Both the position numbers and the translations under genes were made by a program. From Escherichia coli (GTDB lineage Bacteria > Pseudomonadota > Gammaproteobacteria > Enterobacterales > Enterobacteriaceae): DNA of 64,000 bases. The stretch lies in NCBI RefSeq assembly GCF_044324785.1, contig NZ_CP172127.1; one strand, written 5' to 3'. Below are positions 9,704 to 62,797 of the stretch, in pieces (the first letter of the stretch is position 1; each line of letters begins with the position of its first letter). The notes under the pieces were generated by a model. That model had not been told where the DNA came from. It saw only the letters and a program-made list of their open reading frames with translations, and did no database searches.

Positions 9704-9797
9704 GCGATCAGGAAGACCCTCGCGGAGAACCTGAAAGCACGACATTGCTCACATTGCTTCCAGTATTACTTAGCCAGCCGGGTGCTGGCTTTTTTTT
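9704..9797 (+). ncRNA. ryhB: RyhB iron-responsive small RNA
   Basis: gcgatcaggaagaccctcgcggagaacctgaaagcacgacattgctcacattgcttccagtattacttagccagccgggtgctggcttttttttt matches RyhB as I recall it, with terminator hairpin plus T-run. Confidence 0.92.
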
Positions 9798-46623: not shown

Positions 46624-48705
46624 ATGGAAAGCAAACGTCTGGATAATGCCGCGCTGGCGGCGGGGATTAGCCCCAATTACATCAATGCCCACGGTAAACC
46701 GCAGTCGATTAGCGCCGAAACCAAACGGCGTTTGCTTGACGCGATGCATCAACGTACCGCCACGAAAGTGGCGGTAACGCCAGTCCCGAATGTCATGGTT
46801 TATACCAGCGGCAAAAAAATGCCGATGGTGGTGGAGGGCAGCGGCGAATATAGCTGGCTGCTGACCACCGAAGAAGGAACGCAGTACAAAGGCCATGTAA
46901 CGGGGGGCAAAGCGTTCAATCTACCGACGAAGCTGCCGGAAGGTTATCACACGCTGACAGTCACCCAGGACGACCAGCGCGTGCATTGCCGGGTGATTGT
47001 CGCCCCGAAACGCTGTTACGAACCGCAGGCGTTGCTGAACAAACAAAAGCTGTGGGGTGCCTGCGTTCAGCTTTATACGCTGCGATCGGAAAAAAACTGG
47101 GGTATTGGGGATTTTGGCGATCTCAAAGCGATGCTGGTGGATGTGGCAAAACGTGGCGGGTCGTTCATCGGTCTGAACCCGATTCATGCCCTCTATCCGG
47201 CAAATCCGGAAAGTGCCAGCCCTTACAGCCCGTCTTCTCGCCGTTGGCTGAATGTGATTTATATCGACGTTAACGCCGTCGAAGATTTCCATCTTAGCGA
47301 AGAGGCTCAGGCCTGGTGGCAGTTGCCGACCACGCAACAGACGCTGCAACAGGCGCGGGATGCCGACTGGGTCGATTACTCCACGGTTACCGCCCTAAAA
47401 ATGACAGCATTGCGCATGGCGTGGAAAGGTTTCGCGCAACGTGATGATGAACAGGTGGCCGCGTTTCGCCAGTTTGTTGCAGAGCAAGGCGACAGCCTGT
47501 TCTGGCAGGCGGCGTTTGACGCGCTACATGCCCAGCAAGTGAAAGAGGACGAAATGCGCTGGGGCTGGCCTGCATGGCCAGAGATGTATCAGAGCGTGGA
47601 TTCACCAGAAGTGCGCCAGTTCTGCGAAGAACATCGTGATGACGTCGATTTTTATCTCTGGTTGCAGTGGCTGGCTTACAGCCAGTTTGCCGCCTGCTGG
47701 GAGATAAGCCAGGGCTATGAAATGCCGATTGGCTTGTATCGTGACCTGGCCGTTGGTGTAGCAGAGGGTGGAGCAGAAACCTGGTGCGACCGGGAGTTGT
47801 ATTGCCTGAAAGCGTCGGTTGGAGCACCGCCGGATATCCTCGGCCCGTTGGGGCAGAACTGGGGATTGCCGCCAATGGACCCGCATATTATCACCGCGCG
47901 TGCCTATGAACCGTTTATCGAGCTGTTGCGTGCCAATATGCAAAACTGCGGCGCATTACGAATTGACCATGTGATGTCGATGCTGCGTTTGTGGTGGATA
48001 CCGTATGGCGAGACGGCAGATCAGGGGGCATATGTTCACTATCCGGTGGATGATCTGCTCTCGATTCTGGCACTCGAAAGTAAACGTCATTGCTGCATGG
48101 TGATTGGTGAAGATCTCGGTACCGTACCGGTAGAGATTGTCGGTAAGCTGCGCAGCAGCGGTGTGTACTCCTACAAAGTGCTCTATTTCGAAAACGACCA
48201 AGAGAAGACATTCCGCTCACCGAAAGCGTACCCAGAGCAGTCGATGGCGGTTGCGGCGACACACGACCTGCCTACGCTGCGTGGTTACTGGGAGAGCGGG
48301 GATCTAACGCTGGGCAAAACGCTCGGACTGTACCCGGATGAAGTGGTACTGCGCGGTCTGTATCAGGATCGCGAATTGGCGAAGCAAGGACTACTGGATG
48401 CTCTGCATAAATATGGTTGTCTGCCAAAACGTGCCGGGCATAAGGCATCGTTGATGTCGATGACGCCGACGCTGAATCGTGGCTTACAGCGCTACATCGC
48501 CGATAGCAACAGCGCCCTGTTAGGACTACAGCCAGAAGACTGGCTGGATATGGCGGACCCGGTAAATATTCCCGGCACCAGTTACCAGTATAAAAACTGG
48601 CGGCGCAAGCTCTCCGCAACGCTTGAGGCGATGTTTGCCGATGATGGCGTGAACAAGTTGCTGAAGGATTTGGACAGACGGCGCAGAGCGGCAGCGAAGA
48701 AGTAG
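46624..48705 (+). CDS. malQ: 4-alpha-glucanotransferase (amylomaltase)
   Basis: 693 aa. Confidence 0.92.
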   Translation: MESKRLDNAALAAGISPNYINAHGKPQSISAETKRRLLDAMHQRTATKVAVTPVPNVMVYTSGKKMPMVVEGSGEYSWLLTTEEGTQYKGHVTGGKAFNLPTKLPEGYHTLTVTQDDQRVHCRVIVAPKRCYEPQALLNKQKLWGACVQLYTLRSEKNWGIGDFGDLKAMLVDVAKRGGSFIGLNPIHALYPANPESASPYSPSSRRWLNVIYIDVNAVEDFHLSEEAQAWWQLPTTQQTLQQARDADWVDYSTVTALKMTALRMAWKGFAQRDDEQVAAFRQFVAEQGDSLFWQAAFDALHAQQVKEDEMRWGWPAWPEMYQSVDSPEVRQFCEEHRDDVDFYLWLQWLAYSQFAACWEISQGYEMPIGLYRDLAVGVAEGGAETWCDRELYCLKASVGAPPDILGPLGQNWGLPPMDPHIITARAYEPFIELLRANMQNCGALRIDHVMSMLRLWWIPYGETADQGAYVHYPVDDLLSILALESKRHCCMVIGEDLGTVPVEIVGKLRSSGVYSYKVLYFENDQEKTFRSPKAYPEQSMAVAATHDLPTLRGYWESGDLTLGKTLGLYPDEVVLRGLYQDRELAKQGLLDALHKYGCLPKRAGHKASLMSMTPTLNRGLQRYIADSNSALLGLQPEDWLDMADPVNIPGTSYQYKNWRRKLSATLEAMFADDGVNKLLKDLDRRRRAAAKK

Positions 48706-48717
48706 TAGGGTGCGGTT

Positions 48718-48745
48718 GATGCCGGATGCGATGCATCCGGCAGTC
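48718..48745. repeat. REP element
   Basis: gatgccggatgcgatgcatccggcagtc between convergent malQ and gntT. Confidence 0.7.
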
Positions 48746-48752
48746 AGTGTTA

Positions 48753-50069
48753 TCAAATCACCATATTCAGCAGCAGACAGCCTACCAGACCGCACACCGA
48801 GATAATGGTTTCTAGCATCGACCAGGATTTGATGGTCTCGCCGATAGTCAGGTTAAAGTACTCTTTGAACAGCCAGAAGCCCGGATCGTTCACGTGAGAG
48901 AAAATCACACTACCGGAACCAACCGCAATAACCATCAGCTCCGGGCTAACACCCGTCGTTGCAATCAGCGGTGCCGCGATACCACCCGCAGTGATTGCCG
49001 CAACGGTTGCGGAACCCAGCGCGATACGCAGTACGGCAGCAATCGACCAGGCCATCAGCAGCGGAGAAATGTTGGTTTCGTGCATCATGGAAGCAATGTA
49101 TTTGTCCACGCCGCTGTCTACCAGCACCTGCTTGAACGCACCGCCACCACCGATAATCAACAGCATCATCGCAATGATTTTGATGGAAGAAACCAGCGTG
49201 TCGTTAATCTGATCCATTGAACGACCACGGTTCAGACCAAAAGTGAACATCGCAATCAGCACGGCAATCAGCGTTGCCATTACCGGGTCACCGAGGAACT
49301 CCGCTACCGGCAGGAAAGCGTGACCTTTCGGCAGGATCATTTCGGCAATCGCACGCATCGCCATCAGTACAACCGGCACCAGAGAGGTCCAGACGCTGAC
49401 GCCAAAACTCGGCATCTCTTCTTCGCTGAAGGTTTTCGCGCTGTACAGACCTTCCGGGATCGGCTTATCGATACCTTTCAGCACGCGAGCGTAAACCGGA
49501 CCGGCGAGAATCACGGTCGGGATTGCCAGAATAGTACCGTACAGCAGGGTTTTACCCATGTCGGCATTGAAAATGGTGGCAATCGCAGTCGGACCCGGAT
49601 GCGGTGGCAGGAAGCCGTGGGTCACAGACAGTGCAGCCGCCATTGGTACACCAACATACAGCAGTGGAATATTCGCGGAAGCCGCGATGGTAAACACCAG
49701 CGGCAGCATCAGCACGAAACCCACTTCATAGAACAGGGCAAAACCAACGGTAAAACCGGTCAGTACCACCGCCCACTGGATGTGTTTTTTACCAAATTTA
49801 GCAATCAGCGTGGTGGCGATACGTTGTGCGCCACCGCAGTCTGCCAGCATTTTGCCCAGCATTGCGCCAAAACCCATGATCAGGGCAAGGCTACCGAGCG
49901 TCCCGCCGACACCGGCTTTGATGGAGCCAATAACTTTATCCAGCGGCATTCCTTGCATTAATCCAACAGCAAGCGCCACGAGGACGAGAGCGATGAAGCC
50001 GTTCATTTTGAAACGGATCATCAGGAGCAACAACAAGATTACACCGATAGCAACAATGACTAATGGCAT
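48753..50069 (-). CDS. gntT: high-affinity gluconate transporter
   Basis: 438 aa GntP family, MPLVIVAIGVILLLLL. Confidence 0.92.
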   Translation of the reverse strand: MPLVIVAIGVILLLLLMIRFKMNGFIALVLVALAVGLMQGMPLDKVIGSIKAGVGGTLGSLALIMGFGAMLGKMLADCGGAQRIATTLIAKFGKKHIQWAVVLTGFTVGFALFYEVGFVLMLPLVFTIAASANIPLLYVGVPMAAALSVTHGFLPPHPGPTAIATIFNADMGKTLLYGTILAIPTVILAGPVYARVLKGIDKPIPEGLYSAKTFSEEEMPSFGVSVWTSLVPVVLMAMRAIAEMILPKGHAFLPVAEFLGDPVMATLIAVLIAMFTFGLNRGRSMDQINDTLVSSIKIIAMMLLIIGGGGAFKQVLVDSGVDKYIASMMHETNISPLLMAWSIAAVLRIALGSATVAAITAGGIAAPLIATTGVSPELMVIAVGSGSVIFSHVNDPGFWLFKEYFNLTIGETIKSWSMLETIISVCGLVGCLLLNMVI

Positions 50070-50429: not shown

Positions 50430-51005
50430 TTAGTAGTAGGAGTGCTCGCCGCGCTGGTGTTCGGTGAGATCGCGCACACCTTTCAGCTCCGGGAATTCGT
50501 TCAGCAGCTGCTTCTCGATCCCTTCTTTCAGCGTCACATCTACCATAGAACAACCGTTACAGCCGCCGCCAAATTGCAGAATGGCGTAACCGTCTTCGGT
50601 GATTTCCATCAGCGAAACGCGACCACCGTGACCAGCAAGCTGTGGGTTGATCTGCGACTGCAGCATATACTCCACGCGCTCCATCAGCGGTGCATCGTCT
50701 GCGACTTTACGCATTTTGGCGTTAGGCGCTTTCAGCGTTAACTGGGAACCCAACTGGTCTGTAACAAAGTCGATCTCTGCATCTTCCAGGTAAGGAGCGC
50801 TTAACTCATCAACATACGCGGTCAGCAGGTCAAATTTCAGGGCAGTGTCGGTGGCTTCCACAGCATCCGGCGGACAATAAGAAACGCCACATTCAGCGTT
50901 AGGCGTGCCAGGGTTAATCACAAATACGCGGATTTGTGTCCCTTCTTCCTGATTTGCCAGCAGTTTGGCAAAGTGCGCTTGTGCAGCATCGGAAATACGG
51001 ATCAT
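50430..51005 (-). CDS. nfuA: Fe-S cluster carrier protein NfuA
   Basis: 191 aa, C-terminal CNGC motif. Confidence 0.92.
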
Positions 51006-51063
51006 AGTAATGGCCTAATAGTTGACTATTTTAGTTGGTTATAATACGCCCATCATCGAGGCT

Positions 51064-52555
<1,492 letters not shown>

Positions 52556-52583
52556 GTGGCTTTTGAAATGGCGAGACAGAATT

Positions 52584-53462
52584 TTACTGACTCGCCGCAG
52601 CCAACTCTTCTTCTGACACCCCGGTAAAACGCATGATGTCCGCAAGAGGGACTCCGGATTCAAGCATTATTTTTGCTATATACAAGGCTTTGGATTGTTC
52701 CCCCTCTTGCCGCAATCTTTCCGCAATAGTCATTAAGCTCTCCTTGTGTTTCGGTGAATGTTCGGCAACGCCGTCGATAAAATCGTTAAAACGTACCGCA
52801 TCGCCGGTTTGCAAGATGTAATTAAACAGCCCTTTGATTTGTCTGTCATTAGCGTATCCACTACTTAATAAGCAGGCCATTTGCTCTACCAGCCCCATCA
52901 GATCGCGTTGACGGATATGTTTTTGAATTAACTCCAGCAGAGCCATACGTCGGTGCTGCATGATTTCATCATCAGGCATGACGGTGACATCAATCAGCGG
53001 AAATGCGGAGGCATAAAGCTGCCTTGCCAGTTTGGGATCGGCGAAACAATCCAGCCAACACAGAGAATAGGGATAGGGGCTTTCAATACCGTGGTAAAAC
53101 AACAATGGCACCACCATCGGCAACGTTTTGTATCCGGCATCCAGGTGATTTTGCATTGCGGCAATGGCGTAACGCATCATGCGAAATGCGATCAGTTTGT
53201 TTGAGGTGCTTTGATGTTCAATCAGACAATAGATGTATCCTGGTCCTTGTTCCGTTTTCACCGACCACAGCACGTCGGAATAGCTTTCACGCAGATCGTC
53301 ATCAATAAAGCTGCTCGACTCCAGCTTGAGGGTTTTCATATCACAGAGCGCGTGAATAGGTGCCGGTAAATGAAACGCAAGAAAATCGCGCGCCGTCTCC
53401 GGTTGGCGTAAAAAGAGTTTGAACAGCGCATCGTGTGGGGTGGAACTCTGCTTTTTGCTCAT
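52584..53462 (-). CDS. rpnA: Rpn-family recombination-promoting nuclease (transposase_31 / PD-(D/E)xK-like)
   Basis: 292 aa, known in K-12 as yhgA. Confidence 0.8.
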
Positions 53463-53611
53463 GGCGTTCCTTCACCTGTTATTTGAATGCCGCGACTCTA
53501 CGCGCCACTCCACACCTGTGCATTAGCCAGTTTTCATCCCTGCGAGACGCTTTCAGAGGAACTTACGTCGCGCTGCAAGAATTGCATTTTTATGGAAAGC
53601 CGCACGCAAAA

Positions 53612-53640
53612 AAGCCCGGATGCAAACGCATACCGGGCTT
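53612..53640. terminator. hairpin terminator downstream of feoC
   Basis: aagcccggatgc ... gcataccgggctt flanked by A/T runs. Confidence 0.55.
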
Positions 53641-53664
53641 TTCAAAACAGGCGATGGAGTAAGG

Positions 53665-53901
53665 TTAACGCAGCGCCCACCACTCGCGCAGGCAGGCTTT
53701 GCCTTCCGGGCAGCTTTTACAACTGCCAGAGAGGCAGCCGTCAGGTTCTTCCTGAATCCGCACGGCTTTGCCCATGCTTTCCAGCTGTTGCAGCATGGCG
53801 TTAATCATTGGCTGCGGCGTATTCAATGCCTGGCTTATCTGGGCCGCTTCCATACGGCCCCGTAACGCCAGCAAATCACGTACCTGAATAAGTGAAGCCA
53901 T
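53665..53901 (-). CDS. feoC: ferrous iron transport protein FeoC
   Basis: 78 aa from [15 protein letters not shown], CxxGxC cluster; start shares 1 nt with feoB stop. Confidence 0.88.
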
Positions 53902-56222
53902 TAATGGCAATCACCGGTGGTGCTGGCTGCGCAGCAACTGCTTACCGATTTGCGCGTTGCCAGCAGTTCGATATTCACCCGGCTACGCGCGCGGCGCAGC
54001 AGACCGATAACCACGATGTTAAACAGGATAACCGCCAGAATGCACACCAGGCTGTAAGTTGGATGCTGGCTGTAGCTGGCGACTTGATAGAACAATGTTG
54101 CCAGCGAGTAAGCGATATTCAGCCCCCACAAGATGGAGAAGCCCATCCAGCCACGGCTTGATTCACGGGCGATAGCACCCATCACCGAGATGCACGGTAC
54201 GTACAGCAGGACGAAAATCAGGTAGCTGTATGCGGCAGCTGCGCTACCGAATTTCTGATCCATCACACCCATCGCCCCGGTACCCATTTCGCCGTCGCCT
54301 TTGCTCGCTTCAATCGGGTTCATCAGTACGCTAAGGCTGAAGGTGTCTTTCAGGCTCTGCCAGGTTTCATCTACCGCACTGAACAGCTCTTCACCGAGGT
54401 TAAATTCCGCCGGATTGAACTCTTCGTCCTGAATATTTTCTGCGGTGTAGAGGGTGTTGAGCGTACCCACCACCACTTCTTTCGCCATTGCGCCTGTAAA
54501 CAGACCAACCGTTGCCTGCCAGTTATCTTCATGCACGCCAATCGGCTTGAAGACTGGGGTGATCACCCGGCTGACGGAAGCCAGCGCCGAGTCGTTGATG
54601 TTATCGACGATTTTCCCGCTCAGAGAGAAGCTGTTGAAAGCACTCAGGAAAATGCTGACGATGATAATCACTTTACCAGCACGCAGAACGAAGCCTTTCA
54701 GACGCTGCCAGGTCTGGATAATCAGGCTTTTAACGTGTGGTACATGGTAGACCGGCAGCTCCATGACAAACGGCGTCGCTTCACCGCGCATGATGGTGTA
54801 CTTGAGCATCAGGCCAGTCAGCACCGCCATCACAATACCGAGCAGATACAGCGAGAAGACCGCCAGCGCTCCGTTCTGCCCGAAGAAAGCAGCCGCAAAT
54901 ACTGCGAAGATAGCCAGACGCGCGCCGCAGGACATAAACGGTGCCATCATGATGGTCATCAGACGTTCACGCGGTGCATCAAGCGTACGTGCGCCCATTA
55001 CCGACGGTACGTTACAACCGAAACCAACGATCAGCGGTACAAAGGATTTCCCCGGCAAGCCCAGCGCCTGCATCAGACGGTCCATCACAAACGCCGCACG
55101 CGCCATATATCCGGAGTCCTCAAGGAAGGAGAGGAACAGGTACATCATGCCGATCTGCGGCACCAGTGGCAGCACGGTGTTAATACCGCCGCCCAGGCCC
55201 TGGGCGAGGAAGATAGTCAGCCAGTCCGGGAAGTGGAGCGTGTAGCCAATCCACTGAATACCATGCACAAATAGCGCCACGGAGCCGACGTCAAACAGCG
55301 GCTGTAACGCCCCGCCGATGTTGATAGCCAGCAGGAACATCAGGTACATCACAAAGAGGAAAATCGGCAGACCGAGGAAACGGTTGAGCACGATTTTATC
55401 TACCGCAGTGGTGAAACGGCTGGGTTCTGCCGTCAGGGTGTTGCTTACCACATCACAGATGGCAGCAATGCACTGGTAACGCGCATCGGCAATGTGCAGC
55501 GCCGGATCGTCCATCTCATTACGCAGACGGGCGAGGGCGGCATCAAGATGCTGCGACGCTTCACCGGCGTAGGCGCGGCTGTAGATATCTCCTTCCAGCA
55601 TTTGCAAGCCCAGCCAGCGACGTTGTTTCAGCGGGATGTCGGAAGGCATCACTTTTGCCAGTGAATCTGCTTCGTTGAGTAGCGGCTGTGCGTAATGCAC
55701 CAGTTCCACATTCTCGTTAGCTTTATAGCGATCAATCGCCAGCTTGAGCGCTTCAATACCGCGACCACGGGTTGAAACCAGCGGGATCACCGGGCAGCCA
55801 AGACGCGCCGACAGAGCATCAATTTCAATACGAATATTTTGCTTCTCGGCAATGTCGAGCATGTTCAGTGCCACGATGCAGGGAATGCCGAGTTCCAGCA
55901 GTTGTAGCGTCAGGTACAGGTTACGCTCAAGGTTAGACGCATCCACCACGTTAATCAGCAGGTCGGCGTCGCCACTCAAAATGTAGTGACAGGCGATTTG
56001 CTCATCGAGCGAGGTCTGCGATGAGATGGTGGTCAGAGAGTAGGTGCCGGGCAGGTCCACCAGCGTGACCTGATGATCGGTGGTGGAGAATTGCCCTTCT
56101 TTACGTTCGACGGTAACGCCAGCCCAGTTACCTACTCGCTGACGTGCGCCAGTGAGCTGGTTAAATAAGGTTGTCTTGCCAGAATTTGGATTACCAATTA
56201 AGCCAATGGTTAATTTTTTCAT
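53901..56222 (-). CDS. feoB: ferrous iron transporter FeoB (GTPase-permease)
   Basis: 773 aa from [21 protein letters not shown]. Confidence 0.93.
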
Positions 56223-56903: not shown

Positions 56904-59225
56904 TTAACGTTTTTTGCCCATTGCTGCCGCCAACGCATCCATCATCGCGCTGTTACCGGCAGGCTGCGCTTCACGCCCACGCGGTTTGGCTGCCGGGCGG
57001 TTGTTTTGCGGGCGTTCATTACCGCCGCCGCGACGGGCGTTGGTTTCGCCAGGCTGCTCGTCCAGACGCATAGTCAGGGCGATACGTTTACGCTGAAGAT
57101 CGACTTCGAGCACTTTCACCTTCACAATGTCGCCCGCTTTCACCACGGTATGCGGATCTTCCACAAACTTGTTCGACAATGAAGAGATGTGAACCAGGCC
57201 GTCCTGATGCACGCCAATATCGACAAACGCGCCAAAGTTGGTGACGTTGGTCACCGCACCTTCGAGGATCATACCCGGTTGCAGGTCGTTCATTGTCTCG
57301 ACGCCATCGGCAAACTGAGCGGTTTTAAATTCCGGACGCGGATCGCGACCCGGTTTTTCCAGCTCTTTGATGATGTCAGTTACCGTCGGTACACCGAATT
57401 TTTCATCAGTAAAGTCAGACGCTTTCAGGTTACGCAGCTCGCTGCTGTTACCCATCAGATCTTTCAGTGCCTGCTGTGTTGCTGCCAGAATGCGTTCCAC
57501 CACCGGATAGGCTTCCGGGTGAACGGTAGAGGCGTCCAGCGGGTTATCACCGTGGTTAATGCGCAGGAAGCCCGCGCACTGCTCGAAGGCTTTCGGCCCC
57601 AGACGGCTCACTTTTAACAGTTGCTGACGGTTCTGGAACTGACCGTTCTCATCGCGCCAGGCCACGATGTTTTGCGCCATCATGCGCGTCAGGCCCGCCA
57701 CGCGGGTTAACAGCGGAACAGAAGCGGTGTTGAGATCAACACCGACGGCGTTTACGCAGTCTTCTACTACTGCGTCCAGTTTGCGGGCCAGTTGCGTCTG
57801 GCTGACGTCATGCTGATACTGACCTACGCCGATAGATTTCGGATCGATTTTCACCAGCTCCGCCAGCGGATCCTGCAAACGGCGGGCGATAGACACCGCG
57901 CCACGCAGCGAAACGTCGAGATCCGGGAACTCCTGCGCTGCCAGCTCGGAAGCCGAGTAAACCGACGCGCCAGCTTCACTGACGATCACTTTCTGCGCGG
58001 TCACTTTCGGGAACTGCTTCTGCACGTCGAGATAGAAACGCTCAGTTTCGCGGGAAGCTGTACCGTTGCCGATCGCCACCAGTTCAACGTTATGCTTTTC
58101 ACACAGGGCAGCAACGGTCATCGCTGCTTTTGCGGCTTGTCCGGTGTGCGGGTAAATGGTATCGGTCGCCACCAGTTTGCCAGTTGCATCGACCACCGCT
58201 ACTTTTACCCCGGTACGCAGACCCGGATCGAGGCCCATCGTTGCACGCAGTCCGGCTGGGGCCGCCATCAGCAGATCGTGCAGGTTACGGGCAAAGACGT
58301 TGATTGCTTCATCTTCCGCGCGTTCGCGCACGGTGCCCATCAGTTCGGTTTCCAGATGCATCAGCACCTTGATGCGCCACGTCCAGCTCACCACGCCTTT
58401 GCGCCAGCTATCCGCCGGGGCATTGTTCAGGCGCAGGCCGAGATGATCCATAATGATTTGCTCGCAATAGCTCTCTTTTGGCGGCTCATCGAACTGCGGA
58501 TCGGCATTCAGCGAAAGCTGAAGTACGCCTTCGTTACGACCACGGAACATCGCCAGCGCGCGGTGAGAAGGCACCGTTGACAGCGGTTCGTGATGATCGA
58601 AATAGTCGCGGAATTTCGCCCCTTCCTCTTCTTTACCACTCACCACCGTAGAAACTAAATGCGCGTTCTTCCACAGATAATCACGTACTTTTGCCAGCAG
58701 CGCGGCATCTTCGGCAAACCGTTCCATCAGGATATAGCGCGCGCCGTCCAGCGCGGCTTTGGTATCTGCCACGCCTTTATCGGCATCAATATATTGTGCA
58801 GCGGCGACTTCTGGCGTGTGTGACGGATCGCTCCACAGCAGGTCAGCCAACGGCTCAAGCCCTGCTTCAATGGCGATTTGCCCGCGGGTGCGGCGTTTAG
58901 GTTTGTAGGGCAGGTAGAGGTCTTCGAGTTCGGTTTTGCTTAGTGTGGCGTTGATGGCATTCGCCAGCTCGTCAGTGAGTTTGCCTTGCTCGGAAATGGA
59001 CTTGAGGATCGCCTGACGTCTCTCTTCCAGCTCGCGCAGATAGCTCAGACGCGTTTCCAGATTACGCAGCTGCGTGTCATCCAGACCGCCGGTGATTTCC
59101 TTACGATAACGTGCGATAAACGGCACGGTATTCCCTTCGTCAAGCAGGCGAACGGCAGCGTCAACCTGTTCCGGGCGCGCCTGAATTTCACCCGCAATAA
59201 TGCGGCAGAACGAATCATTCATCAT
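56904..59225 (-). CDS. tex: transcription accessory protein Tex (S1 domain)
   Basis: 773 aa, YqgF/HhH/S1 architecture; known as yhgF in K-12. Confidence 0.9.
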
Positions 59226-59321
59226 GGTTTGAGTTCATCTTTTCGGATCAAAAATCAGGGGATAGTTATACGGACTGGCTGGCAAAAATGCCAGCCATCG
59301 GCAGGAGGTTAAGACTCTTCC

Positions 59322-59798
59322 TTACGGTTTCACGTACTCGATAGCATTAACATACCAGCTCGCTTCCCCGGCAGGGGTATTGACCACCGCCAAATCGCCC
59401 ACCTCTTTTTTCAGCAATGCGCGAGCCATCGGGGAATCGATAGAGATGTAATCTTTACGGCCAAAAATTTCATCGTAGCCGACAATACGGAAACGGTGAG
59501 TCACGCCATCGTCGTTTTCAATCTCCACCCACGCGCCAAAAAAGACTTTGCCTTCCTGCTGCGGGGAGTAATCGACGATTTTGAGATTTTCCATGCATTT
59601 AGTGAGATAGCGCACGCGACGGTCGATTTCACGCAGGCGCTTTTTATTATACTGATAGTCAGCATTTTCGCTGCGGTCGCCCAGACTTGCGGCCCAGGTC
59701 ACCTTTTTTGTGACCTCCGGGCGTTCTTCACGCCAGAGATAATTTAGCTCTTGTTTGAGTTTTTCATACCCTTCCCGGGTAACCAGGGGCGTTTTCAT
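59322..59798 (-). CDS. greB: transcript cleavage factor GreB
   Basis: 158 aa from MKTPLVTREGYEKLKQEL. Confidence 0.92.
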   Translation of the reverse strand: MKTPLVTREGYEKLKQELNYLWREERPEVTKKVTWAASLGDRSENADYQYNKKRLREIDRRVRYLTKCMENLKIVDYSPQQEGKVFFGAWVEIENDDGVTHRFRIVGYDEIFGRKDYISIDSPMARALLKKEVGDLAVVNTPAGEASWYVNAIEYVKP

Positions 59799-62097: not shown

Positions 62098-62127
62098 AAA
62101 CGGGAGGCGAAGGTGCCTCCCGTTTTA
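62098..62127. terminator. bidirectional terminator after envZ, overlapping antitoxin stop
   Basis: cgggaggc-gaaggt-gcctcccg followed by tttt. Confidence 0.7.
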
Positions 62128-62421
62128 GATTGTTTTCAATTGATTGATAATGAAAGGATTCGCTTGCAAAAGCAGGAGCAATTTTCGGGGTGCTCCGGTA
62201 GGTTGACGGCGTTTGGTTTCCCAGCTTTTGACCAGGTCATAACTTACCCCTACGGCGACAGCAAAATCTTGCTGACGTAAACCCGTTGCTTCACGGATCG
62301 CTTTTACATCGATCTCGCTATAAGTATGGACGTGCTCTGGTTCAGGCGTTTCTTCACCCTTTTCGATGCGTACCATTTCTTCTGCGCTGGCAAGAAGATC
62401 AGCAAATAATTCGTCTTTCAT
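62125..62421 (-). CDS. HTH (XRE-type) antitoxin, HigA-like
   Basis: 98 aa, helix-turn-helix LRQQDFAVAVGVSYDLVKSWE, downstream of toxin. Confidence 0.7.
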   Translation of the reverse strand: MKDELFADLLASAEEMVRIEKGEETPEPEHVHTYSEIDVKAIREATGLRQQDFAVAVGVSYDLVKSWETKRRQPTGAPRKLLLLLQANPFIINQLKTI

Positions 62422-62479: not shown

Positions 62480-62797
62480 TTAAAGCAGCTTCTCGGACAA
62501 TAGTTTCAATGCCTTTCTTTGTTCTTCTGTTAAATCATCCTGTTCATTTTTAGGATAAATCAACGCCAGATAAATTCGGCCATTGCGTGTTACGTTGTAA
62601 TAAATTATCCGAATGCCACCCCGTTTCCCCATTCCAGAACGGTTCCAGCGAATTTTTCTAAAACTGCCTGTGCCTGCGATAATGTCACCGGCAGTGGGAT
62701 CTTGAATGAGTAGTTCCTGAAAAGCCCGGAACTCATCATCAGGTAACAATAACTGGCGGCGTTTGCTAAATCCTTGTAGTTCAATAAACGTGAACAT
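62480..62797 (-). CDS. RelE/ParE-superfamily toxin, HigB-like
   Basis: 105 aa basic protein ...GIRIIYYNVTRNGRIYLALIYPKNEQ; toxin-first arrangement. Confidence 0.65.
   Translation of the reverse strand: MFTFIELQGFSKRRQLLLPDDEFRAFQELLIQDPTAGDIIAGTGSFRKIRWNRSGMGKRGGIRIIYYNVTRNGRIYLALIYPKNEQDDLTEEQRKALKLLSEKLL

Follow-up and report, generated by a model that had tools for sequence, protein, structure and literature searches.

The gene rpnA (yhgA) of Escherichia coli carries a Pfam name, Transposase_31, that suggests a mobile-element origin and a product name that suggests a role in recombination, and within its own reading frame lie the apparent signals for a second, much shorter protein. The question raised by the copy analysed here, which lies in a 64-kb stretch of E. 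coli DNA referred to below as the window, is which of these features best describes the locus. The original prediction presented the gene as a conserved part of the core genome whose product promotes RecA-independent recombination and which derives from a domesticated mobile element. It is very probable that the locus is instead a chromosomal toxin-antitoxin system arranged as a gene within a gene, in which rpnA specifies a nuclease together with its own internal antitoxin. This is the current view of rpnA, which the original prediction overlooked, and all of the sequence parts that belong to it are present in the window.

The assignment of the gene to a family and to an orthologous group is straightforward (coordinates for all features are collected in Table 1). 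The product matches Pfam PF04754 (Transposase_31, YhgA-like) with an E-value of 1.4e-91, the match covering profile positions 1-202 of 203, and it scores 154.7 bits against TIGR01784 (cutoff 52.1), which places it in the Rpn family. Within the family its best NCBIfam match, at 691.5 bits, is to the equivalog NF007361 ('recombination-promoting nuclease RpnA'), for which the curated cutoff is 583, while the second-best NCBIfam model, NF007418, which is the model passed by K-12 RpnE, gives 412 bits and falls below its own cutoff. A score above the equivalog cutoff, combined with the K-12 gene order feoC-rpnA-bioH, identifies the gene as the orthologue of RpnA, and its original naming as rpnA/yhgA is therefore upheld by the same kind of profile search that had been proposed for challenging it. 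A tblastn search with RpnA found no second rpn copy in the 64-kb window.

The position of the gene was evaluated using a 2.3-kb query that runs from gntX' through bioH, rpnA and feoC to feoB', with a match defined as coverage of at least 80% of the query. Of the 5426 complete E. coli genomes, 5424 gave a match, each a single one on the chromosome, and among the matches listed every one is annotated with rpnA between bioH and feoC. Within E. coli this bears out the description of rpnA as a core-genome gene with a conserved place between bioH and feoC, and the conservation of the position extends to Escherichia whittamii and to Salmonella, where an rpn gene occupies the same slot.

Table 1. Coordinates of the features discussed, given as window positions unless another locus is named.
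Feature	Position	Strand	Description	Basis
bioH	51785-52555	+	convergent on rpnA 3' end, 28 bp gap
Hairpin over rpnA stop codon	52570..52596	-	stable hairpin, in the 28-bp gap to bioH	RNA fold
rpnA CDS (RpnA-L)	52584..53462	-	292 aa, toxin/nuclease; ATG start, TAA stop included	six-frame ORF list
rpnA-S	52584..52733	-	in-frame internal antitoxin gene, M244-Q292, 49 aa; stop included	7TH0 match
Shine-Dalgarno of internal start	52740-52745	-	AAGGAG, codons K240-E241	read from sequence
Transposase_31 / YhgA-like domain	52836..53441	-	residues 8-209	Pfam match
PD-(D/E)XK nuclease core (predicted)	53091..53345	-	residues ~40-124
Q84 codon	53211-53213	-
E82 codon	53217-53219	-
D63 codon	53274-53276	-
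rpnA 5' intergenic region	53463..53603	-	between feoC terminator and rpnA ATG
feoABC intrinsic terminator	53604..53642	-	GC-rich hairpin and U6	inverted repeat I22 and RNA fold
feoC	53665-53901	-	upstream of rpnA; then feoB, feoA
RyhB small RNA	9733-9797	+		Rfam RF00057, 83 bits
Two-gene toxin-antitoxin pair	62125-62421 and 62480-62797	-	between envZ and pckA
tnpB ORF of E. whittamii	L008 4580-5710		376 aa	PF01385, PF07282, PF12323
RpnA-S ORF of E. whittamii	L008 5848-5997		49 aa, intact

The PD-(D/E)XK signature takes in Rpn proteins a family-specific D...ExQ form, represented here by D63, E82 and Q84. Six residues of K-12 RpnA (D11, D63, E82, Q84, R94 and D165) were mutated by Kingston 2017, and with the changes D11A, D63A, E82A and Q84K the effects on recombination, toxicity and the SOS response were all lost (PMC5350276). 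All six are present in the RpnA of the window and are identical in all eight other sequences with which it was aligned, namely K-12 RpnA to RpnE, the alternative-tail allele described below, the Salmonella slot gene and E. marmotae RpnB; among 38 homologues D63 and E82 are invariant and Q84 is at least 90% conserved. An AlphaFold2 model computed with these 38 homologues has a mean pLDDT of 71.8, with most of the core at 75-91, and gives the order strand 40-47, strand 61-70, strand 73-83, helix 91-108, strand 116-124. The model puts D63 on the second strand and E82 and Q84 at the end of the third, which is the placement expected for a PD-(D/E)XK core, and its nearest solved nucleases are NucS, N.BspD6I and AddA. 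A restriction-endonuclease-like PD-(D/E)XK fold may be predicted for RpnA from the topology of this model together with the sequence motifs, and Mg2+-dependent cleavage of DNA in vitro has been reported for the K-12 protein (PMC5350276; PMC10400941).

The internal gene begins at M244. The minus strand reads CAC AAG GAG AGC TTA ATG ACT at this point, so that AAGGAG is followed by a spacer of 6 nt and by the ATG at 52733 that encodes M244. The 38 homologues show at least 90% conservation at M244 and E241 and 100% conservation at T245 and A247. Residues 244-292 align from end to end with PDB entry 7TH0, a 49-residue chain deposited as recombination-promoting nuclease RpnA, with 47 of 49 residues identical (E 4.4e-22); the crystal structure of RpnA-S was solved by Zhong 2023 (PMC10400941). 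The AlphaFold2 model is helical across residues 237-291, and this, with the 7TH0 alignment, identifies RpnA-S as the three-helix dimerisation module. The copy of Pfam that was used holds no match for the 49-residue RpnA-S, and PF27070 (HTH_Rpn_C) is listed in the precomputed annotations of RpnA homologues. Compared with the paralogues and the Salmonella gene, the tail of the window copy has no extra four-residue repeats at position 261 ('EGEQ|SKAL'), the residue that Zhong 2023 marked as the approximate insertion point of such repeats (PMC10400941). Residue 261 is Y in the window and H in K-12, and since it belongs to helix 1 of RpnA-S and coincides with the repeat-insertion position, neutralisation could differ between the two alleles.

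The role of the internal gene has been established in K-12 by Zhong 2023 (PMC10400941). An internal translation start is found there in all five rpn genes of E. coli, and the C-terminal tail, RpnS, is produced separately by way of an internal transcript. The combined changes K240R, E241D and M244L, which alter the ribosome-binding site and the start, abolished RpnA-S in K-12. RpnA-L alone is a strong DNase in K-12, is toxic and inhibits growth, whereas RpnA-S blocks both the cleavage by RpnA-L and the induction of the SOS response in a cognate-specific manner. RpnA-S dimerises, the mass of the complex of the K-12 proteins fits two L plus two S, and the complex dissociates at pH 9-10. RpnA-S is also the more abundant of the two products in K-12, where native RpnA-L was undetected under the laboratory conditions tested (PMC10400941).

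The transcriptional setting of the window copy can be described in part from the sequence. The intrinsic terminator of feoABC lies in a 56-nt stretch (53600-53655) that folds with -29.2 kcal/mol (z -4.8) and is followed by UUUUUU; it insulates rpnA from the upstream operon, and the promoter of rpnA-L must therefore lie within the intergenic region between this terminator and the rpnA start. A scan of 52400-53900 for the sigma-70 consensus detected no promoter, either upstream of rpnA or internally for rpnA-S, and a looser scan gave only weak candidates, of which the one upstream of rpnA is TGCACA-16-TAGAGT at 53522-53495 (8/12 match). For the internal transcript a transcription start is given by K-12 dRNA-seq data cited in Zhong 2023 (PMC10400941). 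At the other end of the gene the hairpin over the stop codon lies in a 65-nt stretch (52548-52612) that folds with -21.2 kcal/mol (z -4.06) on the minus strand, and is possibly a 3' end or stabiliser element of rpnA; the T tract that follows it is weak, so that a terminator function is only inferred. Four matches of the terminator scan within the rpnA open reading frame have weak 7-bp stems and were judged to be due to chance.

Two further features of the window were recorded. The whole-window Rfam scan gave no family at the rpnA locus, and RF00057, which corresponds to RyhB, is the sole family that reaches its gathering score anywhere in the 64 kb. The two-gene pair between envZ and pckA consists of a 105-aa toxin of the RelE family (PF06296) and a 98-aa HTH_3/HTH_31 protein, the latter annotated as NadS family in strain N3; in K-12 the corresponding gap measures only 75 bp, and the pair is therefore an accessory insertion relative to K-12.

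The comparison of alleles across E. coli separates the behaviour of the nuclease core from that of the tail. The window rpnA differs from that of K-12 at 28 nucleotides, which are concentrated in the 3' quarter of the gene: the final 232 nt diverge by 6.5% and the 647 nt before them by 2.0%, with a Fisher p of 0.002 for a boundary that was placed after looking at the data. With the boundary moved to where RpnA-S starts, the values are 5.3% for the tail and 2.7% for the rest (p 0.12). In most E. coli genomes identity to the window is 90-95% for the tail and 95-100% for the core, and a more diverged tail would fit variation in a specificity module. With the gene alone as query, matches spanning 80% or more of rpnA came from only 4661 of the 5426 genomes. 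The segment that contains the catalytic core (53182-53385) is found in 4663 of the 5426 and is absent from 763 (~14%), among which are genomes of ST131, while the RpnA-S segment (52584-52760) is matched in 5424. The loss of the nuclease core from ~14% of E. coli genomes indicates that the toxin is dispensable.

Four classes of allele can be distinguished on the basis of example loci that were fetched and aligned. The first is the intact K-12-type gene, to which the window belongs. The second is a 297-aa allele with a swapped tail, seen for instance in strain 317, for which a diagnostic 261-nt segment is present in 854 of 5426 genomes (~16%); it is 99% identical to the window before M244 but only 59% identical in the tail, where it has one extra four-residue repeat, and it preserves the reading frame and the internal start and passes the RpnA equivalog at 673 bits. 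In the strain 317 locus (L003, 2230-2613) the alternative tail is followed by ~190 nt of foreign sequence and by a stop-disrupted relic of a K-12-type tail. The third class comprises frameshifting deletions that remove the catalytic core, of 245 nt in strain P4 (L004, 1528-1536) and of 439 nt in ST131 strain 4433 (L005) and strain GmM077 (L007), both at ~1577-1580. The 49-aa RpnA-S open reading frame and its Shine-Dalgarno sequence are intact in both of the class's deletion loci that were translated, and in P4 the short repeat GATGCG stands at either end of the deleted stretch, which points to a microhomology-mediated event. The fourth class has a 9-nt in-frame deletion. The original remark that the gene should be kept in mind when local indels are interpreted thus holds in so far as indels do occur, but they sit within rpnA itself and not around it.

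The alignment with E. coli strain N3, the closest complete genome, is ungapped, with 99.5% identity over 24.3 kb (K-12 MG1655, ~97%), and the RpnA of N3 differs from that of the window at 1 residue. The 121 mismatches between the window and N3 fall mainly in three patches (48000-49500, 51000-52500 and 58000-59500); the patch over gntX and bioH holds 38 in ~1.5 kb and ends near the bioH/rpnA boundary, and rpnA has one. The pattern resembles that left by mosaic recombination, with one patch bounded close to the rpnA 3' end.

Outside E. coli the same slot shows further changes. In E. whittamii (L008, 3821-5997) rpnA is split after approximately residue 216 by an IS605-type tnpB, and RpnA-S is left whole. 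Salmonella enterica (L086, 4001-4927) shares the order yhgF, feoA, feoB, feoC, rpn, bioH, gntX, nfuA, gntT with E. coli, and its slot holds a 308-aa rpn gene (P0082) with the architecture and catalytic residues of the window RpnA and with four extra tail repeats. This gene is 61% identical to the window RpnA, whereas the flanking products are far better conserved (FeoB 92%, FeoC 87%, BioH 79%, GntX 83%, NfuA 98%); it scores 442 bits against the RpnA equivalog cutoff of 583, and it is 66-71% identical to each of RpnA, RpnB, RpnD and RpnE, and so no closer to RpnA than to the others. The low identity and the failed equivalog cutoff indicate that the slot position is conserved but that the Salmonella occupant is no simple orthologue, and either very fast evolution in place or replacement would account for it. 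Replacement has likewise been argued by Kingston et al. for rpnC between panC and panD (PMC5350276).

More distant relatives were sought in two ways. In a large protein database the lengths of RpnA homologues climb by 4 aa (292, 296, 300 ... 320), steps that match the published variation in four-residue repeats. A scan of genome contigs, which used exact 8-residue seeds and missed E. coli and Salmonella, so that absence there is uninformative, returned one syntenic locus (that of E. whittamii) and ~50%-identical paralogues in Photorhabdus, Xenorhabdus, Erwinia and others. Photorhabdus and Xenorhabdus have many rpn loci per genome, ~45-55% identical to RpnA; P. namnaonensis has at least seven of them and P. 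akhurstii also has seven, which indicates large expansions of rpn paralogues in these insect pathogens.

The interpretation of the locus depends on how its several possible origins and roles are weighed. The Pfam name Transposase_31 is historical, and the reading that it invites, in which rpnA is a domesticated transposase or insertion-sequence relic ('ISNCY') that marks an old mobile-element insertion, is already largely refuted and has almost no probability left. Besides the Pfam and NCBI names, the patchy and horizontally transferred distribution of the family (PMC10400941) and the many rpn copies per genome in Photorhabdus and Xenorhabdus speak for it. A repeat search of 51700-54300, however, found no terminal inverted repeats or target-site duplications around rpnA. 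The repeats in this interval are short pairs (10-25 nt) at chance level, imperfect or embedded in the neighbouring coding sequences, and none of them brackets the gene; a 12-nt perfect inverted pair (I10) that was considered as an insertion-sequence end sits in the coding sequences of rpnA and feoC and was attributed to chance. Across the Rpn family there are no defined ends, a transposase role is 'highly unlikely', and no autonomous transposase with the Rpn fold is known, according to Zhong 2023 (PMC10400941); the activity seen in vitro is non-specific cleavage (PMC5350276). The earlier description of rpnA as a domesticated gene derived from a mobile element consequently finds no support either at this locus or in the family, and the gene is better described as a horizontally mobile, defence-type gene that has become fixed at the feoC-bioH position.

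Two other readings accept that the protein is or was a nuclease but assign it a different significance. According to one, RpnA is a dedicated recombination-promoting nuclease whose breaks aid the RecA-independent acquisition of foreign DNA, with the small protein merely a regulator. The effect itself, which the original prediction cited correctly, is well documented for over-expressed protein (Kingston 2017, PMC5350276): over-expression of RpnA, RpnB, RpnC or RpnD led to more RecA-independent recombination in a conjugal assay, and no such increase was seen with catalytic mutants. The horizontal mobility of Rpn genes and the 'housekeeping roles' left open by Zhong 2023 (PMC10400941) are also compatible with it. 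The reading is nevertheless improbable, since the effect appears only when the protein is over-expressed, with constructs that, unknown to the experimenters, also made the antitoxin, since native RpnA-L is undetectable in K-12, and since a defence role has been demonstrated for the homologue RpnP2 (all PMC10400941); the deletion of the core in ~14% of E. coli genomes tells against it as well. The boost in recombination is more plausibly a side effect of DNA breakage than a selected function. According to the other reading, which is less probable still, rpnA is a neutral or mildly harmful remnant drifting towards loss, and the window copy is merely one that has not yet decayed. The frameshifting deletions of 245 and 439 nt, the core gone from 763 genomes, the tnpB that interrupts the E. 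whittamii gene and the undetected RpnA-L of K-12 (PMC10400941) could all be expected under drift, but 86% of genomes retain the core at 95-100% identity, all of the tested functional residues are intact in the window copy, and the tail swap in 854 genomes preserves both the reading frame and the internal start. The 28 nucleotide differences from K-12 produce only 4 amino-acid changes, which suggests purifying selection and argues against drift.

The preferred reading, that of a toxin-antitoxin gene within a gene, draws on what the window itself displays: an intact open reading frame with all of the catalytic residues, an internal Shine-Dalgarno sequence and ATG, a near-identical RpnA-S, insulation from the feo operon by a predicted terminator, and no recognisable transposon ends. 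The full open reading frame would yield RpnA-L, a Mg2+-dependent PD-(D/E)XK DNA endonuclease with little or no sequence specificity, and the C-terminal three-helix module would also be produced separately as the 49-aa RpnA-S from an internal transcript with its own ribosome-binding site and ATG. RpnA-S would bind RpnA-L in a complex, probably of two L and two S, and block cleavage, so that the nuclease would stay latent unless something upsets the complex, which alkaline pH does in vitro and phage infection might do in nature. For the window allele, with Y261 and V282, we infer the translation of RpnA-S, the toxicity of RpnA-L, neutralisation and complex formation by analogy with K-12. Antiphage defence as the physiological role of RpnA is a narrower proposition, with a roughly even chance of being correct; within the Rpn family protection against phage has been demonstrated only for the plasmid-borne RpnP2 (Zhong 2023, PMC10400941), and no model of PADLOC-DB 2.0.0, a library dated 2023 that may lack Rpn models, matches RpnA-L or RpnA-S.

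A broader proposal, which is tentative and rather unlikely, is that the feoC-bioH slot is a site of Rpn defence that has been remodelled repeatedly, with selection able to act on the small antitoxin in its own right. It would connect the absence of the core from 763 genomes with the presence of the RpnA-S segment in 5424, the whole RpnA-S of E. whittamii and the 854 swapped tails, and also with a Salmonella gene whose distance from RpnA is much the same as its distance from RpnB, RpnD and RpnE. If it is true, an orphan RpnA-S could provide immunity against incoming or paralogous Rpn toxins or could act as a helix-turn-helix regulator, and the window copy would represent the ancestral, fully armed state of the slot.

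Both the gene and its family are already known, as are its biochemistry and the internal antitoxin, and the locus is in this sense ordinary for E. coli. The primary sources are Kingston 2017 (PMC5350276) and Zhong 2023 (PMC10400941) with its commentary, and an orthology-methods paper has dealt with the synteny of rpnA across Escherichia genomes and with a 68-aa open reading frame that resembles the RpnA tail. The loss of the nuclease with retention of the antitoxin segment, and the non-orthologous occupant in Salmonella, were not found stated in these papers and are modest additions, which concern other genomes and not the window. For annotation, two overlapping products should be recorded, the toxin RpnA-L and the antitoxin RpnA-S, and the locus is to be treated as a likely latent defence module and not as a transposase relic. 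Internal deletions, tail replacement and insertion of an IS make rpnA itself a hotspot of structural change, and alignments and pan-genome calls at this position should therefore expect allele classes and not simple presence or absence.

The closest characterised system is K-12 RpnA (YhgA, b3411), which has the same length of 292 aa and is identical to the window protein at 288 of 292 residues (98.6%). The differences, with the window residue given first, are E22D, H235R, Y261H and V282L, of which those at 261 and 282 fall within RpnA-S, and the two copies share the feoC-bioH slot, the catalytic residues, the internal Shine-Dalgarno sequence and M244 ATG, and the lack of extra repeats. The K-12 paralogues RpnB, RpnC, RpnD and RpnE have the same Transposase_31 domain, the same six residues and an 'MTIAE' internal start; they are 53-70% identical to the window RpnA before M244 but only 18-46% identical in the tail, which carries additional four-residue repeats, and they lie at other loci (panD-panC, hisP-yfcH, glpC-yfaU and mdtM-yjiR), none of them in the window. 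The plasmid system RpnP2-L/S of ECOR13, compared here by its published description (PMC10400941), belongs to the same family and follows the same gene-within-gene toxin-antitoxin logic as rpnA, but it is plasmid-borne and more toxic, and it is the sole member with demonstrated antiphage activity, which is directed against T-even phages.
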